Positions 2,688 through 33,733 are shown, counted from the first letter of the stretch. The stretch: DNA of 64,000 nt from Candidatus Parcubacteria bacterium (GCA_046050355.1 JBJOPW010000002.1:43853-107852), one strand, 5' to 3'. Notes: a model not told the origin generated them from the letters alone. Made by a program: numbers and translations.

Positions 2688-3728
2688 ATGCCAAGTTTAG
2701 GGGTTGATATTTCTGATACATCTCTTAAGTACATTCAATTTGGTGAGGGAAAGAAAAACATGCGCCCGCTCGTAACCTGGGGAGAGATTGATATTCCAAG
2801 TGGCATACTTGAACGAGGCTATGTGCATGATCAAAAAAAGCTGACCGATGTCTTAAAAGAATGTAAGGCTAAAACCGACGCTACATTTGTACGGGTATCA
2901 TTGCCTGAAGAGCGTGCCTATTTGTTTGAAACCGAAATAAAGCGATCAACACCAACTAAAGAAATTCGTAGCCTACTCGAATTTAGGTTGGAAGAAAATG
3001 TTCCGATTCCTGCCCGTGACGCTTTCTTTGATTTTGATATTTTAGCGGGAGAGACTAATGATAAAACTATACAAGTAGTAGTCGCCGCATATGCCCGCGA
3101 GACCATTCTTAATTATTTTGACGCCTGCAATGAAGCGGGTCTCGTGCCCATTGCCTTTGAAGTAGAAGCGCAGGCGATGGTGCGATCGGTACTACCGACT
3201 GGTATGCGAGGGGCGCATATGCTGGTAGATTTTGGAAAGACCCGGACCGGGGTTGGTATCGTGCTTGATGGAAAGTTGATGTACACCTCAACCATTGATT
3301 TTGGCGGCAATCAATTATCCGAAGTGCTCCGGAAAGTTCATGGACAAATCACAGAAGGAGAACTGACAACCATTAAAAATACTCAAGGGCTCATTAAGGG
3401 GGTACATGACACGAGAAGTTATGACGCGCTCATCTCAACCATGTCGGTGATTAAAGACGAACTCGCTTCGCGGATACAATATTGGCACAGTAGTGAAAAT
3501 AAAACCGAGTCACGTCGTATCCAATCAGTCATACTGTGCGGTGGCAGTTCTAATCTAAAGGGGTTGCCAGAGTATTTTACCGAGACACTTGGTGTACCAA
3601 CCTCACGGGCGAGTGTGTGGCAAAATGCATTTTCAGTACATAATTATATTCCACCTATTAGTATTCGCCATTCCTACGGCTATGCCACTGCTATTGGACT
3701 GGCATTACCACCCGATACTTCACTATGA
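2688..3728 (+). CDS. pilM: Type IV pilus assembly ATPase-like protein PilM.
   Basis: Actin-like fold pattern (GVDISDTSLKYIQ..., LVDFGKTRTGVGIV). First gene of a pilM-N-O-like operon with 4-nt overlaps. Start trimmed to MPSLGVD. Confidence 0.7.
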   Translation: MPSLGVDISDTSLKYIQFGEGKKNMRPLVTWGEIDIPSGILERGYVHDQKKLTDVLKECKAKTDATFVRVSLPEERAYLFETEIKRSTPTKEIRSLLEFRLEENVPIPARDAFFDFDILAGETNDKTIQVVVAAYARETILNYFDACNEAGLVPIAFEVEAQAMVRSVLPTGMRGAHMLVDFGKTRTGVGIVLDGKLMYTSTIDFGGNQLSEVLRKVHGQITEGELTTIKNTQGLIKGVHDTRSYDALISTMSVIKDELASRIQYWHSSENKTESRRIQSVILCGGSSNLKGLPEYFTETLGVPTSRASVWQNAFSVHNYIPPISIRHSYGYATAIGLALPPDTSL

Positions 3729-4261
3729 CCAATCTTATTCCCCCTAGTGCTGAAAAGCTTGTTATTAAAGAGTACTGGCTCCGGGTGGTGGCAGTCTGGT
3801 TATTTTTATTTGGAACTGGCTGTTTGATTGTAGCGAGTCTCCATCTGCCGACTTACGTATTGGTACGTAACGAGTTGACTGACTTGCGACAGCAGGTAGC
3901 AAATAATGCAGCCGAAACAGCCAGTATTGATACCAGCTCAGCCGCCATACAAGTAGCCATGACCGATGCCACTTTACTGCTAACGATGGGCACTAGCAGT
4001 GGTCAACATGTAGCAACAATTGAAGCGCTGACTACTATTGCCGGCAGTGATGTAGCACTGTCTTCGTTCTCACTCACGGTCAATGAAAAAAGTACCCAAA
4101 TAACTATCACTGGTACCGCACGAACTCGTACCGCTTTGGCGAATTTTCGTGACGCAATAGAAGCCGATGATCGATTTACTGATGCTATATTGCCAATATC
4201 CAGCTTAATTAAAGATCGCAACATTGACTTTACTATGACAGTAACAAGTAATAACCTATGA
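3725..4261 (+). CDS. pilN: PilN-like type IV pilus assembly protein.
   Basis: N-terminal NLIPP motif, single TM, then a periplasmic domain. Overlaps pilM by 4 nt (ATGA). Confidence 0.5.
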   Translation: MTNLIPPSAEKLVIKEYWLRVVAVWLFLFGTGCLIVASLHLPTYVLVRNELTDLRQQVANNAAETASIDTSSAAIQVAMTDATLLLTMGTSSGQHVATIEALTTIAGSDVALSSFSLTVNEKSTQITITGTARTRTALANFRDAIEADDRFTDAILPISSLIKDRNIDFTMTVTSNNL

Positions 4262-4767
4262 CCAAAAAGACTGTCACCACCCTTGGCATTGCTACCCTCT
4301 ACTTTGCGGTAGTATTGTCCGTGTTGATCTACGCGTATGTGTCAGTCCATTCACAAAAGGCTGATGCCCTGGCTTTAGCAACGACACTGGCTGAGCAGAC
4401 GAGCAAACAATCAATTGCTCGTTCTCTAGCTGCTACCTTTGATGCAACGATCGATGTACGCACTGAGATTGCCTCTTATTTTCTTGAGGAAAAAGAAACA
4501 ATCACCTTCATTGCTGAAATCGAGGCGTTAGCTCAGGCCCTAGGTGTCAGTATTGAACCGACGGCACTGGATTTTGTTACAACCGAATCAGGAAGGCGAG
4601 AGCTCAAAACCGGTTTCGCGGTTAAAGGTACTCGTACGGCCGTCTTACAATTCATGAAGGCAATTGAAACAATCCCGTACCATAGTCGGATTGCATCGCT
4701 GCAGGTGGTGGGGAATGATAATGAATGGAGCGGGCAGGTTGATCTTTTTGTTACAATAAAACCATGA
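4258..4767 (+). CDS. pilO: PilO-like type IV pilus assembly protein.
   Basis: Single N-terminal TM and about 140-aa periplasmic domain. Translationally coupled to pilN and the downstream ORF. Confidence 0.45.
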   Translation: MTKKTVTTLGIATLYFAVVLSVLIYAYVSVHSQKADALALATTLAEQTSKQSIARSLAATFDATIDVRTEIASYFLEEKETITFIAEIEALAQALGVSIEPTALDFVTTESGRRELKTGFAVKGTRTAVLQFMKAIETIPYHSRIASLQVVGNDNEWSGQVDLFVTIKP

Positions 4768-5222
4768 TAGACCAAGCAAAATTACAAACAATCATCACCC
4801 GCCTCGTACGGTCATCCTCGGTTGTTGAGCGACCAGCGATGAGTCCGGCTCGTGAATGGTTCACCGGTATCCTCATTACAATTTGTTTTGTATGTGTTGG
4901 TGGAGTAGTGAGTTATTGGTTATATCTTAATACCGTATCGGTAGAAGCGGAGGTGCAGGATAGTATAACCGCTACTTCATACAAAGGCGCCTTAGTCGAA
5001 GAGGCGGTTATGCGTTTTCGTGCCCGGGGCGCTGCTTACGAGCAGATTCGCGCCCGACAAAACGATCTGCAGCCAGTTGAGGCAATGGCGCCGGTGCCAC
5101 CAGTAACGACTGAGTCACCAATTACTGAGGTTCCTGCGGACCTTACGCCAGAACCACAGATACCAACGGTGGAGCCTGCAGAAGAAGCGACAGAGGAGTC
5201 TGCACCAACGTTGAGTTTTTAG
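4764..5222 (+). CDS. Membrane-anchored protein with a Pro/Glu/Thr-rich C-terminus (possible pilus-associated PilP-like component).
   Basis: Coupled to pilO by a 4-nt overlap. One TM. Low-complexity acidic C-terminal tail. Confidence 0.35.
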   Translation: MIDQAKLQTIITRLVRSSSVVERPAMSPAREWFTGILITICFVCVGGVVSYWLYLNTVSVEAEVQDSITATSYKGALVEEAVMRFRARGAAYEQIRARQNDLQPVEAMAPVPPVTTESPITEVPADLTPEPQIPTVEPAEEATEESAPTLSF

Positions 5223-5420: not shown

Positions 5421-5436
5421 AAATGTTAAATAATTT

Positions 5437-5545
5437 GGTCACGAATCACTAAGTATATTGATTCACTCCGTTCTCAATCTACTAAATGTTCGCGACCCCG
5501 TCTCGCGGTTTTCTGCTTTGGTCAAGCAGAAAACATCGCTGCGAC
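5437..5545 (-). repeat. Copy B of the ~108-nt tRNA-associated repeat element.
   Basis: Reverse complement aligns to copy A, including the GTTTTCTGCTT..AAGCAGAAAAC hairpin and the core ending GATTCGTGACCA. Core hairpin AGTAGATTGA[GAACGGAGTGAA]TCAATATACT. Confidence 0.65.
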
Positions 5546-5587
5546 TCAGAGAGAAGTCGAAAGCAATATTAATTGCTTTCTAAACCA

Positions 5588-5705: not shown

Positions 5706-5799
5706 GCACCCCATCTAACGATGAGGTGAAGACAGCATAGCAAAAAAATGGTGAGCCGGAAACTTCGTGAATCGCGCAGTGTTTTGTATACTACAAATT

Positions 5800-6537
5800 A
5801 TGCAAGACCGACCGACTATCCTTTTGGTGCAATTCAGACAAACTCCTGCCGCTGATCTCCTCGAACGCCAGAGTGTTGAACGTGAAGTTTCTCTCTTTGC
5901 GACGGTAAAAACTATATGTGGGGTTACCGGCAATGTACTCGAAGCGATACAGGGTGCTGATGGTGTGATACTCGGCGGTTCGGGAGACTATGATTTTGAT
6001 GGAGCGAGATCGCCCGATGATCCAGTACGGGCACGTACCGAAAATCTGTTTCGGTCACTTAGTCCAACGCTCGATTACTTATTTACTATCGATAAGCCAC
6101 TTCTTGGGATTTGTTTTGGACACCAGCTCATGGGTGCCTTTCGGGGTGCCAATGTCTATCACGACACTAACCAGAGCAAATTAAAGACGCATACCGTGAC
6201 GCTCCACGATGAAGGACGGAACCACCGCCTGTTTGCAAATATGCCAGTAACTTTTGATGCACAGTATGGACACAAGGATGTGCTCGCACATATTCCGACG
6301 GGTGCGACTTTGCTTGCGCATGGTGGTGAATCCTGTCGGGTGTCAGCGCTCGCGTATAGTGACAATATTATCTCGACACAATTCCATCCCGAATTATCGC
6401 TCGCTGATATGTATGACCGGGTGGCACATATTCCGCACTATTTACCAGAAGGTACAACCGTTGATGACGTGTTTTTTGATACGCCACACGCGCGGACGAT
6501 TTTGCATAATTTTGCGAAGGTGGTGGTAGCGGGGTAG
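5800..6537 (+). CDS. Class I glutamine amidotransferase-like protein.
   Basis: GICFGHQLM (catalytic Cys elbow) and TQFHPE motifs of the GATase1 family. Start trimmed to the ATG at 5800. Confidence 0.7.
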   Translation: MQDRPTILLVQFRQTPAADLLERQSVEREVSLFATVKTICGVTGNVLEAIQGADGVILGGSGDYDFDGARSPDDPVRARTENLFRSLSPTLDYLFTIDKPLLGICFGHQLMGAFRGANVYHDTNQSKLKTHTVTLHDEGRNHRLFANMPVTFDAQYGHKDVLAHIPTGATLLAHGGESCRVSALAYSDNIISTQFHPELSLADMYDRVAHIPHYLPEGTTVDDVFFDTPHARTILHNFAKVVVAG

Positions 6538-6754
6538 GGGCGGGGACTCGGTCACTCTCGTGGCTATATTAGTTCACAAGTTCATAATCTATGGACTCTT
6601 CAGGACTCGACCCAGAATCACGGTTCTTTTATTCAATACATTGAATAAAAGAAGCTCGTGTTCTTGGTCGGCGACTCCTCGTAATTTCTCTTGGTCAGAG
6701 AAATTACATCGTCCGTCGCTTCGAGTCCCTCACGGAAGCAAAACTATTTGCTTC

Positions 6755-7006
6755 CTATCGCCCACAAACAAAAAGAACCACTCCTGCGGTTCTTTTTGTT
6801 TGTGGCCATGACCGCGACAGAGATCGAACTATCACTGAGTTCCTCAAGAAGTTCGACAAGACGTCCGCCGATGCGTAAAGGCCTTGAAACTTCTGTAATG
6901 TGGCCATGATCGTGACACGGATCGAACTATCAGCGAGTTTCTGAATAAATTCGACAAGCCATCTGTCAGGGAATAAAGACCCTAAGACTTCTGTAAGGCG
7001 GCCCAC
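6755..7006 (-). pseudogene. Fused, frame-shifted tandem copies of a small-gene 3' end (shares the C-terminal peptide ...LQKxQGLYxSAxxLSNFxRNSVIVRSLSRS with 7976-8185).
   Basis: The ORF reads through two tandem ~100-bp DNA repeat units. The stop codon present in the 7976 copy (TGA) is TGG here, and unit 2 is frame-shifted. Confidence 0.3.
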
Positions 7007-7022
7007 ATCGACACATTTCTCG
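6764..7022 (+). repeat. 16-bp-stem hairpin (6764-6803) followed by two tandem ~100-bp repeat units (6803-6900, 6901-~7022). A third unit lies at 7973-8098.
   Basis: Units begin TGG(C/T)CATGA(C/T)CG(C/T)GACA..GATCGAAC and contain GTAAAG.CC.T.A.ACTTCTGTAA. Units 1 and 2 are directly adjacent with no spacer. Confidence 0.6.
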
Positions 7023-7678
7023 AACTTGGGCTCCCAACGACCTTCTAAGGTCGATCATTGAAAGGCTGGCGTCGCGTAAGTTGCCCCAGCAGGCTCGCGA
7101 CAATCATTGCGAGGCCTCCTTGCACTCATTCGATGCCGGCAACAATGGGTCGAAGAGCCTTGACATGCGGCAACGGACTGTTCCACCCTTAGACAGCACT
7201 CAATGAGAGGTTGAATCGACTCGCGCCGAAGTCCTGTTTCGGGTTCACAAAATGCTTCCAACTGTTACTGGTTCCATGCTCGGGATCGGAAGATATCTTA
7301 GTCACAGCGACAACCTAAGTACTTGATTTTATTGAGTTTTCCGCCTTTTTCCTTGCATTTGCCGCTGAGGTATGGGAAGATACTTGGGCGATAGGCTCGA
7401 GGCTGACCCGTCGCGGTGAAAGGTGCTGCAACACCAATCACATGTCCCACAAGGACGGCGCCCCAACCACAACCTGGTTGGGGCTTTCCTTTTATGTTGA
7501 CACGATGTCGTGGTCACATCCACCATGTTCCCATCAGGTTCGAGAATCGGGATGCAGCCCGCGAGCCTGACAGGGTCAGCCTCGGCCCTGCACTTTGTGG
7601 CGCGAATGCCGCTTATCGGCCCGGTGGCTGAGTTTGTACGCGCATTGGAGTGCAGGGCTTCTAGATTGGAGCCTACCC

Positions 7679-7864
7679 ATGTCGAAACATGGTATCATCG
7701 CCGATGTGCTCTTCGGAGCGATTGAAACCACCCTTGCGCCAGTCGTTGCTGTCGTCGAGGGAGTAACCGGTGAGGTCAGCAAGGAAGCCAGCGATGGTGT
7801 GCTTCGGGCAATTGTTGATCCGACCGATATCGCGATCAACGGCCTGATCAATATCACGAGGTAA
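7679..7864 (+). CDS. Small hypothetical protein (61 aa).
   Basis: ATG with GGAG 9 nt upstream. ORF is followed immediately by an 8-bp GC hairpin (CTCCGGCG..CGCCGGAG). Lies in the GC-elevated segment. Weak support. Confidence 0.25.
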   Translation: MSKHGIIADVLFGAIETTLAPVVAVVEGVTGEVSKEASDGVLRAIVDPTDIAINGLINITR

Positions 7865-7930
7865 CATCTCACTAACTCCGGCGGGATCTAGGTCTCGCCG
7901 GAGCCTAATAAATGTGTTTCTGATAGAAGA

Positions 7931-8098
7931 CAAGGGGAGTTGCGCAGTCCGCAACTCCCCTTGTCTTTACAGTGGTCATGACCGCGACAAGGATCGAACG
8001 ATCACGGAGTTCCTGAAGAAATTCGACAAGCCTCCCGCCGAAGAGTAAAGACCCTGAGACTTCTGTAAGGTGACCCAGAACGACACACTTCTCGAACC
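7931..8098 (+). repeat. Perfect 14-bp-stem hairpin (7931-7965) followed by repeat unit 3.
   Basis: CAAGGGGAGTTGCG-cagtcc-GCAACTCCCCTTG, then TGGTCATGACCGCGACAAGGATCGAAC... homologous to units at 6803-7022. Confidence 0.6.
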
Positions 8099-8185
8099 AT
8101 AAAAACGGTGCTCGAAAAATTGCAACATGTCGGTGGAAGAGACGCTAGACTTCGAAAACTCGAAAACTGAGTCTCTTGGTGGCAA
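7976..8185 (-). CDS. Small hypothetical protein (69 aa) ending in the repeated C-terminal peptide, followed by a terminator hairpin.
   Basis: Intact ORF whose last ~30 codons lie in repeat unit 3. TGA stop, then the 14-bp hairpin on the minus strand. Confidence 0.3.
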   Translation of the reverse strand: MPPRDSVFEFSKSSVSSTDMLQFFEHRFYGSRSVSFWVTLQKSQGLYSSAGGLSNFFRNSVIVRSLSRS

Positions 8186-8436
8186 TAGCAGAGACAGGGG
8201 TCAAAGCATCACGGAATTCTCGAGTAATCCACAATTCTTCTGGCTAAGAGTAAACTCTCTGAGATATCGGTACTGCGACCTTGACCGAGAAGGGTAGAAA
8301 GGAGAAAGCTATGACGTGAACTTACAGTGATCTAGACGCACAGCCCGACACGTTGGAGTTCAAATTGAAGTCAAGGTTCGGCAAGCATGCTCACAGTGAC
8401 AGTCTGTTCATTAGGGACGGAACCTGATGAACGCCA

Positions 8437-8859
8437 GTGGTGACACGCGATGTGCAAAGTGACATAGAGAGCTTCAAGTCAATTGATGACAGGGGTCAGT
8501 GGATGCTGCAACCAACATACTACGAGCACGAGTCGGGCTTGAACTGTGTTGACATAGCCAAGCGGTTGGCATTCCTTCGGGGAAACATTGTAAAGTACGT
8601 TTGGCGAGCAGGCAATAAGGGTGATTTGGTTCAAGACCTGCAGAAGGCGATTGAGTACGCGCAGATACTCATTGTTGACCCAGATCGGGTTTGCCAGGAC
8701 CAAGAGTTGGTTTCGATGATTGATTGGTATTGTAAGAATGAGTCGCACGACCTTCGTAGGACCATTATTAGAAGTGCCGCGCTGGACTCATCAGAGATCG
8801 ACTTGAAAGAAGGTGTTTTGATGAAGCTAGACCAGTGGGTTGATTCAACTCGGTCATGA
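8437..8859 (+). CDS. DUF3310-family protein (phage-associated).
   Basis: TYYEHESGLNCVDIAKRLAFLRGNIVKYVWRAGNKGDLVQDLQKAIEYAQIL matches the DUF3310 signature (..HY..G.E.ID.......FLLGNAIKYIWRAG.KG....DL.KA.WYL). GTG start. 3' end overlaps the convergent gene 8768-9454 by 92 nt, so its extent is uncertain. Confidence 0.5.
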   Translation: MVTRDVQSDIESFKSIDDRGQWMLQPTYYEHESGLNCVDIAKRLAFLRGNIVKYVWRAGNKGDLVQDLQKAIEYAQILIVDPDRVCQDQELVSMIDWYCKNESHDLRRTIIRSAALDSSEIDLKEGVLMKLDQWVDSTRS

Positions 8860-9454
8860 GTACTCGCTGCAGCAGCGTTAGTCGCGTATAATTCTTAGCA
8901 TCTTTGATGCAGGCAGGGTTGCGGATATTCAACATTAGGCAAGATCTGGTGAAGAACCATGACTTCAGATAGACTTCTCTCCCCCCAATAAACGGACAGC
9001 GAACAAGATCTACGGTACTTCTGCTAACGAGAAGGGAACGGTTGACCGAAGCTATCAGAGTGTCCATGACGGCATGATCAACAGTATTCCTGAACATCCG
9101 CGGATCGCCCCTTAGTACCTCCGAAAACAAACCTTCAGGTCCTATCTGATCGCGGAGGTCAGACTCTTCACGAAGAAGTTCATATATTTCTTTGACTAGT
9201 GCCCAATGCTTCTTGTCGCAGAGGTTGATCACGGACTCTGCTTCAATTCGTGCTTCAAGGACGACGGGAGTCAATTCAGTTCCGGCGCACTTGTTTTCCG
9301 TCCACGACAACGCATGGCGTGGGCCAGCTTCGAAGAAGTATATGCCTTCACCTAGCCAAAGGCCATCATGTTTACTCGGGTTGAATCTGTTCGATCGAGA
9401 GATTGACTCAGCAGACCCAAGGTCTGTTCCATGATACGCGATGTAGGTATACAA
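8768..9454 (-). CDS. ART-fold protein (RES-domain / PARP-like), putative NAD-utilizing toxin.
   Basis: N-terminal YHGT...NRFNPS...GEGIYFFEAGPRHALSWTE resembles the RES motif (GRFNPpG...lYlaes.etAllE) and the PARP H-G-[ST]/G.GIYF pattern. The C-terminal ~60 aa overlap the DUF3310 ORF and may be read-through. Confidence 0.45.
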   Translation of the reverse strand: MYTYIAYHGTDLGSAESISRSNRFNPSKHDGLWLGEGIYFFEAGPRHALSWTENKCAGTELTPVVLEARIEAESVINLCDKKHWALVKEIYELLREESDLRDQIGPEGLFSEVLRGDPRMFRNTVDHAVMDTLIASVNRSLLVSRSTVDLVRCPFIGGREVYLKSWFFTRSCLMLNIRNPACIKDAKNYTRLTLLQRVLMTELNQPTGLASSKHLLSSRSLMSPARHF

Positions 9455-9485
9455 AAAAATAGGCCCCCAGAGATTGTGGGGGACC

Positions 9486-10169
9486 TTAGCTTCCTACAAC
9501 GGTCTTTGCAAGACTCTCTCCCTGAACTGCATTGATGTTGTTGGGATCAGTGCAGTTGATGCGGTGAAATTCGTTCGCTGCAAAGACAATCACCGAGACA
9601 TTGGCTGAATCCGCCTCTGCCTTGACGATGCTGTAGGCCCTACGCAACTCATCGCGCGAAATCGCGTCAATGGTTAGGCCCATTCGCTTTGTCCTGTTTG
9701 ATAGAGGGGTTGCGTTGTCCCGTAGCTGATTTAAGCTAACCGGAAGAGCATCTGAGCTTGGTTTCCAAGTGCGAGATCCAAGAAGGACTTCGACACCATT
9801 ATCCCTTTGCTCTATATCTCCGCCTGTAATTATAAACTCTAAAGCAACAATTGCAATTAATATACCAACTTGAGGCAATAGAAGGAGAATTGTCAAGTAG
9901 AGCTCAGTTTCTGTCGTCTTTAGGAAGATTAGTGAGGCAGCGCTCGTTAGCAGAAGAATAAGATGGACTATTCCAAGTACAATAGATATCCCTACTCTGC
10001 GCGGAAGTATCTCCCCATGCTCATTTACTTGGGTTATCGGTTCAAAAAGGGTCCGAGCATTCAAAACTACTCGCCTCAATGTGCTTACAAACTGCCGCAA
10101 TGATGACGAACGCTTAACTAGCGCATAGAGGCCTGGTCCGACGGCGAAACTCAAAAGTGATGCTGACAT
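9486..10169 (-). CDS. Two-TM membrane protein of unknown function, directly upstream of and co-oriented with the ART-fold gene.
   Basis: Two adjacent hydrophobic helices (aa ~60-113) and a ~110-aa C-terminal soluble domain. 31-nt gap to the downstream gene. Confidence 0.45.
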   Translation of the reverse strand: MSASLLSFAVGPGLYALVKRSSSLRQFVSTLRRVVLNARTLFEPITQVNEHGEILPRRVGISIVLGIVHLILLLTSAASLIFLKTTETELYLTILLLLPQVGILIAIVALEFIITGGDIEQRDNGVEVLLGSRTWKPSSDALPVSLNQLRDNATPLSNRTKRMGLTIDAISRDELRRAYSIVKAEADSANVSVIVFAANEFHRINCTDPNNINAVQGESLAKTVVGS

Positions 10170-10273
10170 TTGGTCGAAAACTGCTTCTCGAACCGGACCA
10201 TAATCGGAAAATATCCAGTGTTAGAGCCCTATAATTGGCTTCAGATGAGGGAAAATTGTGGGGGTGTCCCCAA

Positions 10274-10349
10274 TGGTGGGCGATGAGGGACTCGAACCCC
10301 CGACCTCGATGGTGTAAACATCTTGCTCTACCAACTGAGCTAATCGCCC
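10274..10349 (-). tRNA. tRNA-Val (anticodon TAC), CCA encoded.
   Basis: Reverse complement GGGCGAT-TA-GCTC..GAGC-A-AGATG-TTTACAC-CATCG-AGGTC-GGGGG-TTCGAGT-CCCTC-ATCGCCC-A-CCA. A hairpin TGGGGGTGTCCCCA lies immediately 3'. Confidence 0.85.
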
Positions 10350-10434
10350 GAATGTCATGCAGTATAGCGTACTTTATTAAATTGTCCACCGGTAAGTTAT
10401 TAGAATAACACGTATATGGTATAATAATGAGCGT

Positions 10435-11100
10435 ATGAAAATACTCGAAAAGAAGAGGGCTATAGAGTTGCGTGAGCGGGGGATAGCTTTAGGTGAAATC
10501 GCTAAAAAATTAAACGTAGCAAAAGCTACAGTCAGTTATTGGGTACGGGATATTTCATTATCGAAGACACAGATCAAGCAACTCAGAGCGAATAGTCACT
10601 CAAGAGAAGCAATTGAAAAGCGACGATTGTCACGTATGACTGCAGCCGAAAAAATCCGAGATAGTATACGAGAAGAAGCTCGACAACAAGCAGTACAGTT
10701 AATCAAAAATCCATTATGGTGTGTTGCAATAGCCTTATATTGGGGGGAGGGTGGAAAGACGCAACGAACGGTTCGAATCGCAAATAGCGACCCCTCAGTT
10801 ATTAGACTACTTTGCCACTTCTTTAGAAATGAATGTCATGTGCCACTTTCTAAAATGCGAGCACATGTTCATGCGTTTTCGCACAGCGATATTGAATCAA
10901 TAGAGAAGTACTGGTCAAAAATTAGTGGCATACCCAGAAATCAATTTTTTAAGGCATATATTAAACAAAGTAGCTCTAGTAAAGAAAAAAGACAAACACT
11001 TCCAAATGGTACAATGCAAATATATGTACATGATAGTAGTTTGTTTATTAAAATTATAGCTTGGATAGAATATCTGAAAGAGATAAAACATTATGATTGA
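10435..11100 (+). CDS. HTH-domain protein with a possible LAGLIDADG-like motif (candidate free-standing homing endonuclease).
   Basis: N-terminal resolvase/sigma-70 region-4-like HTH (RGIALGEIAKKLNVAKATVSYWVRD). Central AIALYWGEGGK resembles LAGLI(E/D)GDG. AT-rich. Sits between tRNA-Val and acyP. Confidence 0.4.
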   Translation: MKILEKKRAIELRERGIALGEIAKKLNVAKATVSYWVRDISLSKTQIKQLRANSHSREAIEKRRLSRMTAAEKIRDSIREEARQQAVQLIKNPLWCVAIALYWGEGGKTQRTVRIANSDPSVIRLLCHFFRNECHVPLSKMRAHVHAFSHSDIESIEKYWSKISGIPRNQFFKAYIKQSSSSKEKRQTLPNGTMQIYVHDSSLFIKIIAWIEYLKEIKHYD

Positions 11101-15236: not shown

Positions 15237-15670
15237 CAAATAGCCGACCGAAACATGAATATGTTTCGGTCGTTGCTATTTGTAGACCAAGACTGGATTT
15301 GAAAGACAGTTTCGGGGTTCCCTTAGGGCCGAAACTGTCCGGGTCGGGCGAATGAGTTATATTGTGAGCAAAGCGAAATAATATAACCATGAGTGTGACC
15401 AAATCCAGTCTTGGGCACAAAGTCGTAAAACAAAAACAATTCTCCAAAAGAGAATTGTTTTTGTTTTAGAAAGCCAATGACTTGGCTTTCGACGACTTTG
15501 TGAAGCGGAGCGTTGTGAGTCGCCCCAGAAAGGCGACGAACCGCGAGCTGGGGTCGAGAACACTTAGTAGATTGAGAACGGAGTGAATCAATATACTTAG
15601 TGATTCGTGACCAGGACAAGCAAACAGGATTAAATAAAAAGCTTAGTAACTCATGACTTAATCCAGTCTT
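15237..15670 (+). mobile_element. Composite non-coding element(s) downstream of tRNA-Leu, bounded by direct repeats of the tRNA 3' end.
   Basis: Hairpin 15245-15276. Inverted copy of the tRNA 3' end at 15284-15302. Hairpin 15305-15338. Conserved-loop hairpin GTTATATTGT[GAGCAAAGCGAA]ATAATATAAC at 15355-15386. A 22-nt exact direct repeat of the tRNA 3' end at 15399-15420. Hairpin 15425-15468. Repeat copy C. A second partial repeat AATCCAGTCTT at 15659-15669. Confidence 0.5.
15505..15612 (+). repeat. Copy C of the ~108-nt tRNA-associated repeat element.
   Basis: Conserved core CCGCGAGCTGGGGTCGAGAACACTTAGTAGATTGAGAACGGAGTGAATCAATATACTTAGTGATTCGTGACCA. Its 5' hairpin differs from copies A and B (GTCGCC..GGCGAC). 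Confidence 0.65.
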
Positions 15671-19010: not shown

Positions 19011-19222
19011 AGGCGGCTACCGGAAGGAATTGGTCACAGGTTACTAAGCTTTTTATTTCGCTTTGCTCATAAAAATCTAAGTACCCGCGACCCCGCCTCG
19101 GCCGTTTTATTTCTAGAAAGAAATAAAACATGCCTGCGACTTTCAATTCCCGGACGCAAGTGATACTAATCACTTGCTTAGCCGCCCCAATATAAAAGAC
19201 CCCAAAAAGGGGTCCTTTATAT
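19011..19222 (-). mobile_element. Composite non-coding element downstream of tRNA-His, bounded by a direct repeat of the tRNA 3' end.
   Basis: Partial direct repeat GGCGGCTACCGG.A..GGAATTGG at 19013-19034. Conserved-loop hairpin (minus sense ATTTTTAT[GAGCAAAGCGAA]ATAAAAA) at 19049-19077. Palindromic hairpins 19106-19129 and 19157-19178. Inverted copy of the tRNA 3' end (TAGCCGCCCCAATAT) at 19179-19195. Terminator hairpin 19196-19218. Confidence 0.5.
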
Positions 19223-30138: not shown

Positions 30139-30654
30139 TTAATTTAGGCGTTTAAAATCAACCCACTCAAAGTTGATACCGTCATGCGTCTGCATCTCAC
30201 TGGTATGTACGGGCGTAAAGCTGGTAGCAAAATCAGGGAAGATGGTATCGCCTGGTGTATCGTCATGAAAAAAGGTGAGATGGAGGAAGTCGGTGTAGGG
30301 GAGTGCCAGGCGATAGAGCTCAGCGCCACCACCGATGTGGATCTCGGACGGATTCTCCTCCGCTGCCAAGGCAAAAGCCGTTTCCAAATCATTGGCGACG
30401 AGCACACCTTGGGGCGCCGGATATGTTGTGTCTCTCGTGACCACAATGTTCGTCCGTCCTGGTAGTGGTTTGCCGAGAATTGCCACTATCGATTCAAAGG
30501 TCTTCCGACCCATAATCACCGGCTTGCCGAGGGTGAGTTCCTTAAACCGCTTCATATCAGCTGGTACATGCCACAAAAGACCATTGTCTTGGCCAATAGC
30601 GCGGGTGCTTTTGCCCATACTGGCTACAATAACGATAGGGATATTTCTATACAT
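30139..30654 (-). CDS. folA: Dihydrofolate reductase.
   Basis: IVIVASMGKSTRAIGQDNGLLWHVPADMKRFKELTLGKPVIMGRKTFESI... canonical DHFR motifs. Confidence 0.85.
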   Translation of the reverse strand: MYRNIPIVIVASMGKSTRAIGQDNGLLWHVPADMKRFKELTLGKPVIMGRKTFESIVAILGKPLPGRTNIVVTRDTTYPAPQGVLVANDLETAFALAAEENPSEIHIGGGAELYRLALPYTDFLHLTFFHDDTPGDTIFPDFATSFTPVHTSEMQTHDGINFEWVDFKRLN

Positions 30655-30751
30655 AATACTATTATGACATGTTCAAAGGCGGCTGTCTTTTGGTGGTCTT
30701 TGTTGCGTAATGGTACACTTATGGTCACTAATCACTAAGAACTACAAACTT

Positions 30752-31426
30752 ATGGCTCATTATGAAATCGAAATTAAGAGTTTGCTTGGTACACCGGAGC
30801 GTGCAGCTGAGATTAAATCAAAAATGGCGACCGCTGACCCAAGTTTAAAACTCACTTCAGAAAACACCCAGCTCAATCACTATTTTGAAGGTGGCGATAT
30901 AAAAGTGCTGGCTTCCAGTGTCGAACACCTATTTTTAGTCGATATATTTGCTAAACTGACGAAGATTGTTTCTATTGGCAAAAACTTCTCTGTCCGGACA
31001 CGGCAACGAGACGAGGAAGTCCTGTTGGTGATAAAAGCTTCGATTGATTCAGGTACAAGTGAGAATACAGTTTCGCGGTTAGAGTTTGAGGAACCAGTTG
31101 TATTGAGTCTCGAGGAACTAGACGTTTTGGTCTTATCTGCCGGCTACACGTATCAAGCTAAATGGTCTCGCACTCGCGAAGAATATGCATACAAAGGGAT
31201 CAATGTCTGTTTCGATAAAAATGCTGGTTATGGATATGTGGCTGAATTTGAGAAAATTCTCCACGATGAATCAGAACTGTCAGCTGCACGTCAAGAACTT
31301 GATGAGCTAATGGGTGAGTTGGGAGTAGAAGAGTTATCGCAAGAGCGTTTGGCACGAATGTTTGCTCACTATAATACTAACTGGTCTCAGTACTACGGAA
31401 CTGATAAAATATTTATCATAGAATAA
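30752..31426 (+). CDS. CYTH-domain protein (CyaB-like triphosphate tunnel metalloenzyme).
   Basis: N-terminal YEIEIKSLL resembles the CYTH EIERKF-type motif. About 224 aa. Start trimmed to the ATG at 30752. Confidence 0.6.
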   Translation: MAHYEIEIKSLLGTPERAAEIKSKMATADPSLKLTSENTQLNHYFEGGDIKVLASSVEHLFLVDIFAKLTKIVSIGKNFSVRTRQRDEEVLLVIKASIDSGTSENTVSRLEFEEPVVLSLEELDVLVLSAGYTYQAKWSRTREEYAYKGINVCFDKNAGYGYVAEFEKILHDESELSAARQELDELMGELGVEELSQERLARMFAHYNTNWSQYYGTDKIFIIE

Positions 31427-31434
31427 TTCGTTAT

Positions 31435-31995
31435 ATGTTTCTGTCAGATAAAGATATTTTAGCGGAGGTTAAGGCTGGTAATATTACCCTCGAACCATTT
31501 GTGCAAAAACAATTACAACCGGCTACCTACGATATTCGGTTAGGTAATACATTTATTGTCAATGATGCTCACTCAACTAAAGCCATCGATCCTGTTAAAG
31601 GAATTTTTCCTAAGACACAAACAATTGAGGTAGCTGATGGTGGTGAGTTTGTACTTCATCCCGGAGTGAGTATCCTTGGCTACTCAAAAGAACGGTTTGG
31701 TTCCGATAGCTATTTGATTGAAGTAAATGGTAAGTCGAGCCTTGCGCGCATTGGTCTTATCGTTCACAACTCAGCTAGTATCGTAAACCCAGGTCATTAT
31801 CTACAAATCGCCCTTGAGCTTTGCAATCTCAACAATGTGCCAATCATTCTTCGACCTGGAATGCTTATCGCTCAACTCTCGTTTTCAACTCTCAGTTCAC
31901 ACACGAATAAGACCTACGGTGAGACAGGTCGCTATCACGAAAACAACATTGTAGGGTATGTTCCACCGAAGACAAAGAAGTCGACCAAAAAATAG
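31435..31995 (+). CDS. dcd: dCTP deaminase.
   Basis: MFLSDKDILAEVKAGNITLEPF..ATYDIRLG.. dUTPase-fold Dcd pattern. 186 aa. Confidence 0.85.
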   Translation: MFLSDKDILAEVKAGNITLEPFVQKQLQPATYDIRLGNTFIVNDAHSTKAIDPVKGIFPKTQTIEVADGGEFVLHPGVSILGYSKERFGSDSYLIEVNGKSSLARIGLIVHNSASIVNPGHYLQIALELCNLNNVPIILRPGMLIAQLSFSTLSSHTNKTYGETGRYHENNIVGYVPPKTKKSTKK

Positions 31996-32021
31996 TAGCA
32001 CTTTAAATACATTATTATATT

Positions 32022-33035
32022 ATGTCAACCAAACACCCAGAGTACCAATACCTTGATCTGTGTCGGGATATTTTAGAAAATGGAGCTGATAAAGAGTTGT
32101 TTTTCAATCAAGTCGTATTGGATGAATACAAAACTAAGGGCGAGGAACCTCCGTTTATTCGTTCAGTTTTTGGAAGACAAATCCGTTTTGATTTATCTAA
32201 AGGTTTTCCATTGTTAACTACTAAAAGAACTTTTTGGCGTGGGATTACTACAGAACTTATTTGGTTTCTGAGTGGCAGTTCAAATATCCGACCGCTACTT
32301 GAGGTCAATAATCATATCTGGGATGAATGGGCATGGAAAATGTATCATATGTGGGCTTTGGAACACGCTCCAAATGAAGATTTATCACAAGAAGATTTTA
32401 TTCAAAAATTAACTGATTTACCAGCCGATGATCCATTTGTACAGAGATGGGGAGATCTCATTACAATTTATGGTCGCATGTGGCGTCGTTGGCCAGCAAA
32501 AGACGGACGTGAGATAGATCAGCTGGCGTGGGTAATTGAAGGGCTAAAGAAAAAGCCCGATCGAAAATCTTATGTCGTGAGCGCTTGGAACCCCGACTTC
32601 ATTTATGAAATGGCATCTGAGGGGCAGAAATCTCACGTACCGCCGTTCTGCCACACCATGTTTCAGTTTCAGGTTGCAGATGGAAAATTAAATCTCGGAC
32701 TGTATCAACGGTCGGCCGACTTATTCCTTGGTGTGCCATTTAATATTGCCAGTTATGCCTTATTACTTGAAATGGTTGCTCAAATTGTAAATATTCCAGC
32801 TGGAGAGTTCGTACATACTTTCGGTGATGTTCATATTTACAGTAATCATTTTGATCAAGTAAAAGAGCAGCTTACTCGTGAACCGTATAAGTTTCCAACC
32901 TTGTCACTTAATAAGAGTGTAACTAATATTGATGATTTCAAACTTGACGATATCATCCTCAATGATTATCAAGCACACCCGTTGCTTAAGGGCGAAATAG
33001 CTAATATTGGTGGTTTTGACGAAAAGAAGAAATAA
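32022..33035 (+). CDS. thyA: Thymidylate synthase (ThyA-type).
   Basis: PPCHTMFQFQV and YQRSADLFLGVPFNIASYALLLEMVAQ active-site motifs. Confidence 0.9.
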   Translation: MSTKHPEYQYLDLCRDILENGADKELFFNQVVLDEYKTKGEEPPFIRSVFGRQIRFDLSKGFPLLTTKRTFWRGITTELIWFLSGSSNIRPLLEVNNHIWDEWAWKMYHMWALEHAPNEDLSQEDFIQKLTDLPADDPFVQRWGDLITIYGRMWRRWPAKDGREIDQLAWVIEGLKKKPDRKSYVVSAWNPDFIYEMASEGQKSHVPPFCHTMFQFQVADGKLNLGLYQRSADLFLGVPFNIASYALLLEMVAQIVNIPAGEFVHTFGDVHIYSNHFDQVKEQLTREPYKFPTLSLNKSVTNIDDFKLDDIILNDYQAHPLLKGEIANIGGFDEKKK

Positions 33036-33046
33036 TTCGAATCAGT

Positions 33047-33733
33047 ATGGAAAAAGCAAAATTAATTGTGGTCGACGGCGGAGCCAATATTGGTAAGGCG
33101 ACGCAGGCCGATATGCTCATGAATCGTCTTATCAATGAGGGGTACCAGGTCGGAAAGATGGATTTCCCACGTTACAACCAAAACACTATCGGACACTTCA
33201 TTAACGAGTTTATTGATAGTGATAGTCCGTCGCTCGCAACCTTGCCACCAAAGTGTTTTGCTGTTCTCTTTGCGGCTGACCGCTACGAATCAAAAAAGCA
33301 GATTGAAGAGTGGGTGGCCGAAGGTCGGGTGATTATCTTCGACCGCTATGTGAGCGCCTCGATGTTGCACCAAGGGAGCAAGATTGCCGATATCGACCAA
33401 CGTGAAGAATTTCTCCGCTGGGTAGAGCATGTTGAGTACGAAATCTTTGGGATGCCACGACCGGATTTGACCGTCTATCTTGATGTGCCGCCAAACGAAA
33501 GCGACAAGCTCCTCGGCTATGTGGAGGAACTTGGCGTAAAAGTGGTCAATGACGAAAGTAAGGCAAAGATTGACCAAGCCAAAGTCTCAGACTGTGCCAA
33601 GTATCTTGCTGCCATCAATCACAACTGGGTGACAGTACCGTGTCTTGAGGGAGGGGAACTCCGTAACCGTGATGCGATTCACGAAGAAGTGTATACCGCA
33701 GTAAAGTCCAAATTACTCACTACACCAGCCTAA
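33047..33733 (+). CDS. tmk: Thymidylate kinase-like protein (divergent P-loop).
   Basis: IVVDGGANIGKATQ (variant P-loop), FDRYVSASMLHQG (DRY..S..YQG-like) and PDLTVYLDV lid/LID motifs. Confidence 0.65.
   Translation: MEKAKLIVVDGGANIGKATQADMLMNRLINEGYQVGKMDFPRYNQNTIGHFINEFIDSDSPSLATLPPKCFAVLFAADRYESKKQIEEWVAEGRVIIFDRYVSASMLHQGSKIADIDQREEFLRWVEHVEYEIFGMPRPDLTVYLDVPPNESDKLLGYVEELGVKVVNDESKAKIDQAKVSDCAKYLAAINHNWVTVPCLEGGELRNRDAIHEEVYTAVKSKLLTTPA

Follow-up and report, generated by a model that had tools for sequence, protein, structure and literature searches.

A probable decayed large serine recombinase element at a tRNA-Val 3' end in a Candidatus Parcubacteria genome

Introduction

In the model serine integrases, the attachment site attP lies outside the integrase gene, and the targets are mostly protein-coding genes. 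Here we describe an island at positions 6806-10275 of a 64,000-nucleotide window from a Candidatus Parcubacteria genome (GCA_046050355.1, JBJOPW010000002.1:43853-107852; "the window" is this whole stretch, and positions are counted from its first nucleotide). The island abuts the 3' end of a tRNA-Val gene and is probably the decayed remnant of at least one element inserted by a large serine recombinase (LSR). Comparable designs have been described for tyrosine recombinase systems. In archaeal "suicidal" integrases of the SSV type, integration into a tRNA gene splits the integrase open reading frame (ORF) and leaves the halves at opposite ends of the element, and a review regards an integrase split by its own att site as exclusive to archaea (PMC8371274). 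In mycobacteriophage BPs and its relatives, the immunity of which depends on integration, attP lies in the 3' end of a phage gene and integration alters the C-terminus of the protein (PMC4557955).

The island also carries an ADP-ribosyltransferase (ART)-fold gene, for which the nearest described system is PD-T4-9, also called CmdTAC. Its toxin, CmdT, is an ART of the diphtheria toxin family with an HY-[E,D,Q] triad that modifies mRNA, and for which Y41 is essential (PMC9519451; PMC11618068; 10.1101/2024.02.24.581848). A second cargo family, DUF3310, has been linked to the nucleotide kinase gp1.7 of phage T7 (PMC10700055). An earlier note, made from the sequence of the window, had read positions 6540-10273 as probably the remnant of a decayed prophage or integrative element with no detectable integrase. 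We revisit that segment by comparison with relatives.

Results and Discussion

The island, its empty site and its junctions

The host genes on either side of the segment are a class-I glutamine amidotransferase (GATase) gene at 5767-6537 (Pfam E=1e-18) and an intact tRNA-Val(tac) gene at 10274-10349 on the minus strand, the 3' end of which faces the island. The tRNA was identified by ARAGORN and Rfam. A scan of one genome per species yielded two close relatives, L009 and L010, with GATase proteins 87% and 93% identical to that of the window, respectively. In both, the GATase stop is followed by a spacer of about 200 nt and tRNA-Val, with downstream genes as in the window, and the whole segment is missing. 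Positions 6806-10275 are an island inserted at the 3' end of tRNA-Val and absent from the same site in two relatives. The insert is 3,470 bp long, with the 4-bp repeat GTGG at both limits. The left boundary drawn in the earlier note (6540) lies about 265 nt too far left, as 6538-6805 is ancestral spacer in L010 and L009. A strain-specific insert at a tRNA gene is ordinary in itself.

As aligned with L010 and L009, the ancestral spacer between GATase and tRNA-Val occupies 6538-6801 (to 6805 with the core included); it lies outside the island and forms the left arm of attB and attL. It holds hairpin I1 (6762-6805), with an 18-bp stem, which directly abuts the tRNA-Val 3' end in L010; because I1 is present in this island-free genome, it predates the island.

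A three-way comparison of attB (from L010), attL and attR demonstrates an insertion with exact junctions around a 4-bp core. The core GTGG lies at 6802-6805 in attL and at 10276-10279 in attR, the latter at the end of the LSR remnant described below and within the tRNA-Val 3' end, the terminal CACC of which overlaps it. The site attB reads ...TTTTTGTTT-GTGG-GCGATGAGGG (with longer arms, GGTTCTTTTTGTTT-GTGG-GCGATGAGGGACTCGAACC, also given as GGTTCTTTTTGTTT-GTGG-GCGATGAGGGACTCGAACCCC). The left junction, attL, is ...TTTTTGTTT-GTGG-CCATGACCGCG (longer arms GGTTCTTTTTGTTT-GTGG-CCATGACCGCGACAG), and the right junction, attR, is ...CCCCAATG-GTGG-GCGATGAGGG (longer arms GGGGGTGTCCCCAATG-GTGG-GCGATGAGGGACTCGAACC). 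The arms of attL and attR match the L010 attB exactly on either side of GTGG, making the two junctions clean hybrids around a short core. Only these 4 bp are common to the junctions, and a test for a duplicated tRNA 3' segment was negative. The reconstructed attP, of about 50 bp, would be TTGTGGGGGTGTCCCCAATG-GTGG-CCATGACCGCGACAGAGATCG.

The tRNA end itself differs among the three genomes. The CCA of tRNA-Val is encoded in the window and in L009 and is not encoded in L010 (…GCCCA/CAAAC; window 10274-10279 compared with L010 565-571). The end bases of the window's tRNA-Val, 10274-10279, derive from the element side, and the insertion has changed the tRNA 3' trailer. The ancestral spacer also contains an inverted copy of the tRNA-Val 3' end, at 6720-6764 (+) in the window and 483-530 in L010, which consists of TTCGAGTCCCTCA, a 24-nt hairpin insert and ATCGCCCAC. 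In the island-free state the tRNA-Val 3' trailer is complementary to the gene's own T-arm and acceptor strand, and the insertion has displaced this copy by 3.5 kb.

A serine recombinase remnant at the tRNA

The stretch next to the tRNA, 10170-10279 (+), is the remnant of an LSR pseudogene of about 37 codons (VENCFSNRTIIGKYPVLEPYNWLQMRENCGGVPNGG) and forms the left arm of attR. When the LSR of the related locus L098 is used in tblastn against the island, it matches 10167-10277 (+) through residues 437-473 (62% identity, E=6e-9), and the LSR of provirus L104 matches 10170-10279 with E=3e-6. Alignment of the remnant at the DNA level scores 94 (z=35), and the homology ends at ...AATGGTG, which is the core. 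By this homology, the approximately 110 nt between the start codon of the partner gene (see below) and tRNA-Val are the last LSR codons before the crossover, and their frame runs on into the tRNA. The L098 LSR, encoded after the ART gene, has 530 aa with Resolvase, Recombinase and Zn_ribbon_recom domains, and relatives of it occur in L099 and L007; in L099 the LSR is divergent from the partner gene, as in the window.

The intact LSRs continue past the core point (L098 ...GGVPVG DPRRPTDRTFFTDE..., L007 ...GG AHERDTDRTFMTEDDK...). Joining 10275 to 6802 at GTGG brings the two ends of the island into a single open frame, ...VENCFSNRTIIGKYPVLEPYNWLQMRENCGGVPNGGHDRDRDRTITEFLKKFDKTSADA followed by a stop (also ...GGVPNGGHDRDRDRTITEFLKKFDKTSADA followed by a stop), and this joined frame is collinear with the intact C-termini of L098 (...GGVPVGDPRRPTDRTFF...), L007 (...GGAHERDTDRTFM...) and L104. 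The join demonstrates that a complete recombinase C-terminus is restored in frame. In the integrated state, the frame ends with ...GGVPNGGR and a stop inside the tRNA antisense.

Of the LSR gene body, this C-terminal remnant is all that survives, and the island is now without a working recombinase; in L098 and L099 the cargo is found together with an intact LSR. No integrase pseudogene was found in 6806-8436 by Pfam on the ten longest stop-to-stop frames, by tblastn with the neighbours' genes or by blastn against plasmids and phages. The earlier statement that no integrase is detectable is strictly wrong, since the remnant abuts the tRNA, outside the region that had been proposed for the search (6540-8430).

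Repeated recombinase tails and segment E2

The left part of the island contains repeated units of about 98 nt, all on the plus strand, which encode GHDRDxDRTI(T/S)EFL(K/N)KFDK plus five residues and a stop. Unit A (6802-6899) is an orphan LSR 3' tail that forms the right arm of attL; its frame, 6804-6878, encodes GHDRDRDRTITEFLKKFDKTSADA and a stop, and it is identified by the in-frame join and by alignment to the L007 LSR tail (z=11.7). Unit B (6900-6997), in tandem with A, is a second copy (z=7.1 against the L007 tail), and unit C (7972-8069) is a third (z=4.3). The decayed unit D (8179-8274) is a fourth, recognised by alignment and by a covariance model (33 bits, E=1.5e-5, with many broken pairs). 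Two short fragments belong to a second, L098-like type of tail: B' (6998-7030; z=6.7 against the L098 LSR tail) and C' (8070-8100; z=7.7), and DNA alignments of B', C' and the copy in contig L097 to this tail give z=6.7-7.7. Across the window this model picks out A, B, C and the decayed D and no further full unit, and it detects none in the other loci searched. The duplicated gene-end cassettes of the earlier note are real gene ends, namely severed LSR 3' tails, and homology between units and LSR tails is demonstrated by these alignments. An early tblastn of the units against the L007 recombinase (E of 0.1-0.4) had been set aside as chance and was later confirmed by DNA alignment.

The pattern of substitution also follows the coding frame. 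The pairwise differences among A, B and C in the ORF part fall mainly in one codon phase (12/19, 8/12 and 11/17), and when these counts are used to infer changes on a tree of the three units, about 18.5 of 29 substitutions are in that phase. All three units share the position of the stop codon. Searches for the units elsewhere, with degenerate and exact patterns in viral contigs and JGI metagenomes, found none, and a 44-aa unit peptide query found no protein with common words. Rfam scans of 6400-10400, both at gathering thresholds and by E-value, gave no family besides tRNA.

The 98-nt units could also be read as minus-strand structured RNA genes or sites, or as hairpins resembling repetitive extragenic palindromic (REP) sequences or attC, each with a strong terminator hairpin, rather than as gene ends. 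The minus-strand consensus folds at -19.6 kcal/mol compared with -6.4 for the plus strand, four pairs are changed on both sides among the three copies, with 94% of cells paired, and on the minus strand hairpins I1 and I2 come after units A and C. There are three informative sequences only, and we rank this reading below the coding explanation because the folding z-scores of single copies are not significant (-1.8, -1.4 and +0.45). Against it are also the 3-periodic substitutions in the plus-strand frame and the conserved stop codon, the homology to LSR coding sequence with which the units are in frame, the lack of an Rfam match, and the presence of hairpin I1 before the island. As a replacement for the coding explanation it is unlikely; a coding unit could still also act at the att site as an RNA or a DNA hairpin.

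Three other candidates for the units were discarded. An integron or attC array does not fit, in that the GTCGAAC/GTTCGAT pair is an inner helix and not the base, the unit boundaries have no GTTRRRY, and no tyrosine recombinase was found. Type III or type I toxin-antitoxin systems made up of the units, hairpin I2 and the 61-codon ORF of segment E2 were rejected, there being no minus-strand toxin ORF after I2 and no purifying selection on the ORF. Unit heads as decayed tRNA 3' ends showed a weak match to tRNA-Val or to the tRNA-like end of L097 (z of about 1-3), and this idea was replaced by the LSR-tail homology.

Between B' and unit C lies segment E2 (7031-7971, +), which is GC-rich, mostly non-coding and 91.5% identical over 7094-7971 to L097, a contig of 1 kb from a different sample. 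Within E2 are a terminator-like hairpin found by terminator scan (7460-7484, +), a 61-codon ORF (7679-7864, +) called by NCBI and JGI and intact in L097, and hairpin I2 (7927-7967, +), to which unit C is joined just as unit A is joined to I1. In L097, I2 is followed by T-arm/acceptor sequence (CCGGGGTTCGATTCCCCGTAGGGTCA), a tRNA-like 3' end, and no unit. By this comparison E2 looks like DNA flanking another tRNA-type target that travelled with the element, which suggests that several integration products have accreted. Just one substitution relative to L097 is found in the non-coding stretch 7362-7503, at the end of which is the hairpin at 7460-7484; a small RNA or regulatory site may lie there.

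A similar layout occurs outside the window. Positions 3591-4827 of the provirus L104 (IMG/VR) carry an intact 513-aa LSR, the tail of which, from GTGTGGTG, is repeated twice downstream at 95% and 71% identity; the tail copies bracket a small cargo gene for a 106-aa signal-peptide (secreted) protein. This is the same arrangement of LSR and repeated tails.

Proposed mechanism and its alternatives

We consider that 6806-10275 is the decayed remnant of at least one integrative element inserted by an LSR at the extreme 3' end of tRNA-Val, with a probability of roughly 0.78. In the free element, attP would lie inside the last 25 or so codons of the LSR gene. Integration would leave the gene body beside the tRNA, at attR, and the tail at the far end, where attL would be unit A beside hairpin I1; the gene order of the window would then be a circular permutation of that in L098 and L099 (LSR, tail, ART, partner), opened at attP. 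The extra tail copies B, C, D, B' and C' might record repeated recombination or accretion at such sites, with E2 as flanking DNA captured between them. Nearly the whole LSR body would later have been deleted, up to the partner start codon, and because of this deletion the island would be unable to move by itself.

A number of points weigh against this account. No intact copy of this element is available, so that attP is reconstructed and was never observed, and L098, L007 and L104 are only assumed to represent the unsplit state. The view of E2 as a captured flank comes from one 1-kb contig, and its 61-codon ORF, with five nonsynonymous and two synonymous differences between the window and L097 and no clear purifying selection, may be no gene. 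Among the four and a half tail copies, the directly adjacent A and B are not obviously explained by simple tandem integration, since to our knowledge serine integrases do not recombine attP with attL.

A wider possibility, which we put forward tentatively and hold to be rather less probable than its opposite, is that an LSR family spread over Pseudomonadota elements, a provirus and a genome of the candidate phyla radiation (CPR) has its att site in its own 3' coding region and targets tRNA genes ending in ...CACC(A). Integration in such a family would exchange a tail of about 25-60 residues for a few tRNA-antisense codons, giving a switch between free and integrated forms, and the tail arrays might act as a platform for cassette accretion.

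The classical alternative is an island inserted by a tyrosine integrase, the decayed att repeats of which would be the T-arm-like matches at 6541-6623 and 10187-10203 that the earlier note took for degraded copies. The island does abut a tRNA 3' end, and relatives of its cargo occur in elements with tyrosine integrases (L003, next to tRNA-Gly, L008 and L099). The candidates at 6541-6623 are ancestral spacer, present in genomes without the island, and none rises above window background in a Smith-Waterman scan of the whole window with tRNA-Val, which detected nothing above that level in the island either. The best match in that scan is the inverted spacer copy at 6720-6764 (TTCGAGTCCCTCA at 6720 and ATCGCCCAC at 6756), which is identical in L010. 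Likewise GGGACTCGGTCAC, just past the GATase stop, cannot be a scar of the island because it is conserved in island-free relatives. The sequence at 10187-10203 (CTTCTCGAACCGGACC) was rejected as a tRNA fragment, as it codes for CFSNRT within the serine recombinase remnant. Junctions with just 4 bp in common, and the lack of any tyrosine integrase fragment in the Pfam scans of ten stop-to-stop frames or in tblastn with the neighbours' integrases, also speak against a tyrosine integrase. This rival is already largely refuted and we regard it as very improbable.

Still less probable is that the segment is ancestral and was lost by deletion in both relatives, even though just two relatives were compared. 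The empty site is precise and identical in the two, I1 being joined directly to the tRNA end, the LSR remnant and the split-ORF junctions mark an insertion, and the nearest relatives of the island's genes sit on mobile elements of Pseudomonadota. The composition is also deviant: the tetranucleotide deviation of 6801-8500 (z=3.2) is the second highest in the window, and GC at 7050-7970 is 0.54, compared with a window mean of 0.48 (standard deviation 0.039). The right half (8437-10273) has a host-like GC of 0.477, making the overall shift modest, and composition supports a foreign origin to that modest degree. The ORF-poor, GC-elevated DNA described previously is borne out for 6806-8436, which has no long ORFs and is compositionally odd, apart from the 61-codon ORF inside it.

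Although the source is a metagenome-assembled genome and Logan contigs break at 10305 and 6752, an assembly chimera at the tRNA can be dismissed as the least probable reading. The segment and both of its junctions are present at 100% identity in independent Logan assemblies of two runs, and one contig from these, L001, extends across the two junctions into the host sequence on either side, likewise at 100% identity. In their arms, the junctions are precisely what site-specific recombination would produce.

Of the checks proposed in the earlier note, a scan of composition gives the deviation above, and the synteny comparison shows GATase and tRNA-Val about 200 nt apart in L009 and L010. Its observations were largely right, and its interpretation was right in outline and wrong in mechanism: an acquired element that has lost its integrase agrees with the empty sites, the composition and the cargo homologues on integrative elements, while the junctions have a 4-bp core of serine type.

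Cargo genes

The right half of the island carries the DUF3310 gene and the two-gene minus-strand module that had been recognised before. The module consists of a partner gene followed by the ART-fold gene. The ART gene (8768-9454, -) encodes a 228-aa protein from a TTG start, with YHGT and GxGIYFFE motifs. It has no Pfam or NCBIfam match. Its whole length matches phrog_14664 (E=2e-11); the PADLOC model PD-T4-9_A is a weak match of partial coverage (E=7e-5; family members reach 2e-8), and a profile of the ORF with five close homologues matches exotoxin A across YHGT...GxY (E=0.017). A word-indexed search found six close clusters of homologues, and an exhaustive profile search 2,422 cluster representatives, mostly of about 190 aa. 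Residues H8, G9, G35, G37 and Y39 are invariant in 40 family members, and H8, G9 and Y39 align to exotoxin A at its YHGT. The product has the ART fold and is of the H-Y-[EDQ] (diphtheria toxin/PARP) type, with the conserved His (xHG[ST]) and Tyr (GxGxYF) of the NAD+ site present. The NCBI annotation missed this gene altogether: the consecutive accessions MFM2339535-538 (RLZZ360_171-174) are the 61-aa ORF, DUF3310, the partner and a helix-turn-helix (HTH) gene beyond the tRNA.

The partner gene (9486-10169, -) encodes 227 aa with two transmembrane (TM) helices, seen as hydropathy peaks that span residues 54-86 and 88-120, and with a C-terminal domain that is soluble. It has no Pfam match, its homologue search returned itself alone, and its single-sequence structure model (predicted local distance difference test score, pLDDT, of 47) is too poor for use. 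A protein of 198-249 aa lies upstream of ART in every other readable context (L003-L006, L007, L008, L098, L099, L100 and L101-L103), and the order partner then ART holds in 10/10 contexts counting the window (the others being L003, L007, L008, L098, L099 and L100-L103). Five of these loci (L003, L007, L008, L098 and L099) carry LSR or tyrosine integrase genes. The partners of L003 and L007 are 29-33% identical to that of the window over the full length. For distant ART relatives in JGI metagenomes, BLAST detected no partner or DUF3310 homologue.

Directly before the ART TTG start is a G/C hairpin followed by a T-run (9464-9482, -). The same layout between partner stop and ART start, including the TTG, is kept in L003 and L007, with a compensatory change of the stem from CCCCC/GGGGG to CCTCC/GGAGG. 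This hairpin would mask the G-rich stretch for ribosome binding, and together with the TTG start it may throttle toxin output.

The DUF3310 gene (8437-8859, +; Pfam PF11753, E=4e-9) is convergent with the ART gene, which overlaps its 3' end by 92 nt. Its PHROG matches are annotated as nucleotide kinase, and the NCBI record starts it at 8503. It is 34% identical to its counterpart in L003, which is in the same convergent position. Because it is missing from L007, L008, L098 and L099, it is probably an optional neighbour of the pair.

The partner and ART genes are adjacent, co-oriented, small and conserved as a pair, like type II toxin-antitoxin genes, and we infer from this that they may be a toxin and its cognate neutraliser or sensor, of toxin-antitoxin or abortive-infection type. 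Some observations make this role less certain. The toxin and antitoxin assignments are drawn from fold, gene order and context only. The candidate third catalytic residue, E160, is Q in four of five close homologues and lies where the structure model has a pLDDT below 50. The ancestral stop codon is gone from the ART ORF, which overlaps the DUF3310 gene and has a C-terminal extension of about 35 aa missing from homologues; it might be inactive. The C-terminal domains of the L007 and L003 partners have weak ribbon-helix-helix matches (NikA-like 8e-5, ParD 0.05), and that of the window has none.

Flanking genes and other features of the window

The left flank carries pilus-assembly-like ORFs, tRNA-Arg and GATase, and beyond tRNA-Val on the right are acylphosphatase, UppS and RluA genes. 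Between tRNA-Val and acylphosphatase, 10435-11100 (+) encodes a 221-aa HTH protein (HTH_23 E=1e-5; GC 0.37; named "transposase-like protein" by JGI) that is not in L009 or L010. It is a single-gene insertion between a conserved GGTATAMT promoter-like box and the acylphosphatase start, and thereby an indel independent of the island, located across tRNA-Val from it.

A family of intergenic repeats of about 100-190 nt is found next to tRNA genes (602-709, 5433-5546, 15552-15670 and 19026-19218); it is common to the window and its relatives at 73-85% identity, and the spacers between GATase and tRNA-Val in L009 and L010 belong to it. One further stretch of the window, 30600-33150, is a compositional outlier (tetranucleotide z=3.3) and holds a nucleotide metabolism cluster of DHFR, a CYTH-like ORF, dCTP deaminase, thymidylate synthase and thymidylate kinase.

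Implications

Insertion by a serine recombinase explains all the odd features of the segment by one mechanism: the ORF-poor DNA, the repeated gene ends, the missing integrase and the tRNA adjacency. The island would be a dead remnant, and the parts of it that deserve attention are the putative self-spanning att site of a serine recombinase and the pairing of a membrane protein with an ART. For an uncharacterised serine integrase family it provides attB, attL and attR to the exact base pair, together with a reconstructed attP; such enzymes are sought as genome-engineering tools. If the tentative family-wide reading is true, a built-in switch of the recombinase between free and integrated forms could bias directionality or stability. 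Tail arrays alternate with small cargo both in L104, where the order is LSR, tail, cargo and two further tails, and in the window, with A, B, E2, C, D and the toxin module; on the same condition, this would hint at cassette accretion driven by a serine recombinase. The locus is also a case of mobile-element cargo acquired by a reduced CPR genome, with nearest relatives on Pseudomonadota elements. The ART gene belongs to a sizeable CmdT-like family without a Pfam model, the close subfamily of which, as examined here, is always paired with a membrane protein.

Comparison with known systems

Elements of the phiC31, Bxb1, A118 and SPbeta type belong to the same family as the one proposed here, sharing a recombinase gene at the element edge and a very short core without extended identity between attP and attB. 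Unlike in phiC31-type elements, the att site here would be inside the 3' coding region of the recombinase, insertion is into the very 3' terminus of a tRNA gene, and orphan tail copies accumulate beside the element. Integration that edits the integrase's own C-terminus has precedent in archaeal tyrosine integrases and, for a repressor, in a mycobacteriophage; for serine recombinases, a shallow literature search found no description of a self-split integrase or of an attP within the gene. As in the SSV-type design, the ends of the element, when joined, restore one recombinase ORF. The SSV-type enzyme is a tyrosine recombinase and the split inactivates its gene, whereas here the recombinase is of the serine type, the elements are bacterial and just 25 or so C-terminal codons would be removed. 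BPs has a tyrosine integrase and the gene that is split encodes its repressor, whereas the gene split here would be that of the recombinase itself.

The ART protein resembles CmdT in that both are single-domain diphtheria-toxin-type ARTs of about 190 aa with an HY-[E,D,Q] signature and a tyrosine at almost the same position (Y41 in CmdT, Y39 here), found in variable regions of mobile elements (PMC11618068; 10.1101/2024.02.24.581848). The similarity is weak and confined to the N-terminal half (E of about 1e-4 to 1e-8), and the gene order is reversed, with the partner first. In the ART neighbours there is no CmdA- or SecB-like match and no PADLOC model, and Pfam gives DUF3310 alone; where CmdTAC has a CmdA-like antitoxin and a SecB-like chaperone, the island has a membrane protein with 2 TM helices. 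Although CmdT comes nearest to the cargo, the cargo lies outside CmdTAC because it has neither CmdA nor a SecB-like chaperone.

The island as a whole also resembles a cis-mobilizable element (CIME). The CIME and accretion concept was described for tyrosine recombinase elements, unlike the serine type here; the likeness lies in a non-autonomous, att-bounded remnant that has several att-like copies in its interior, which is what tandem accretion followed by deletion would be expected to leave.

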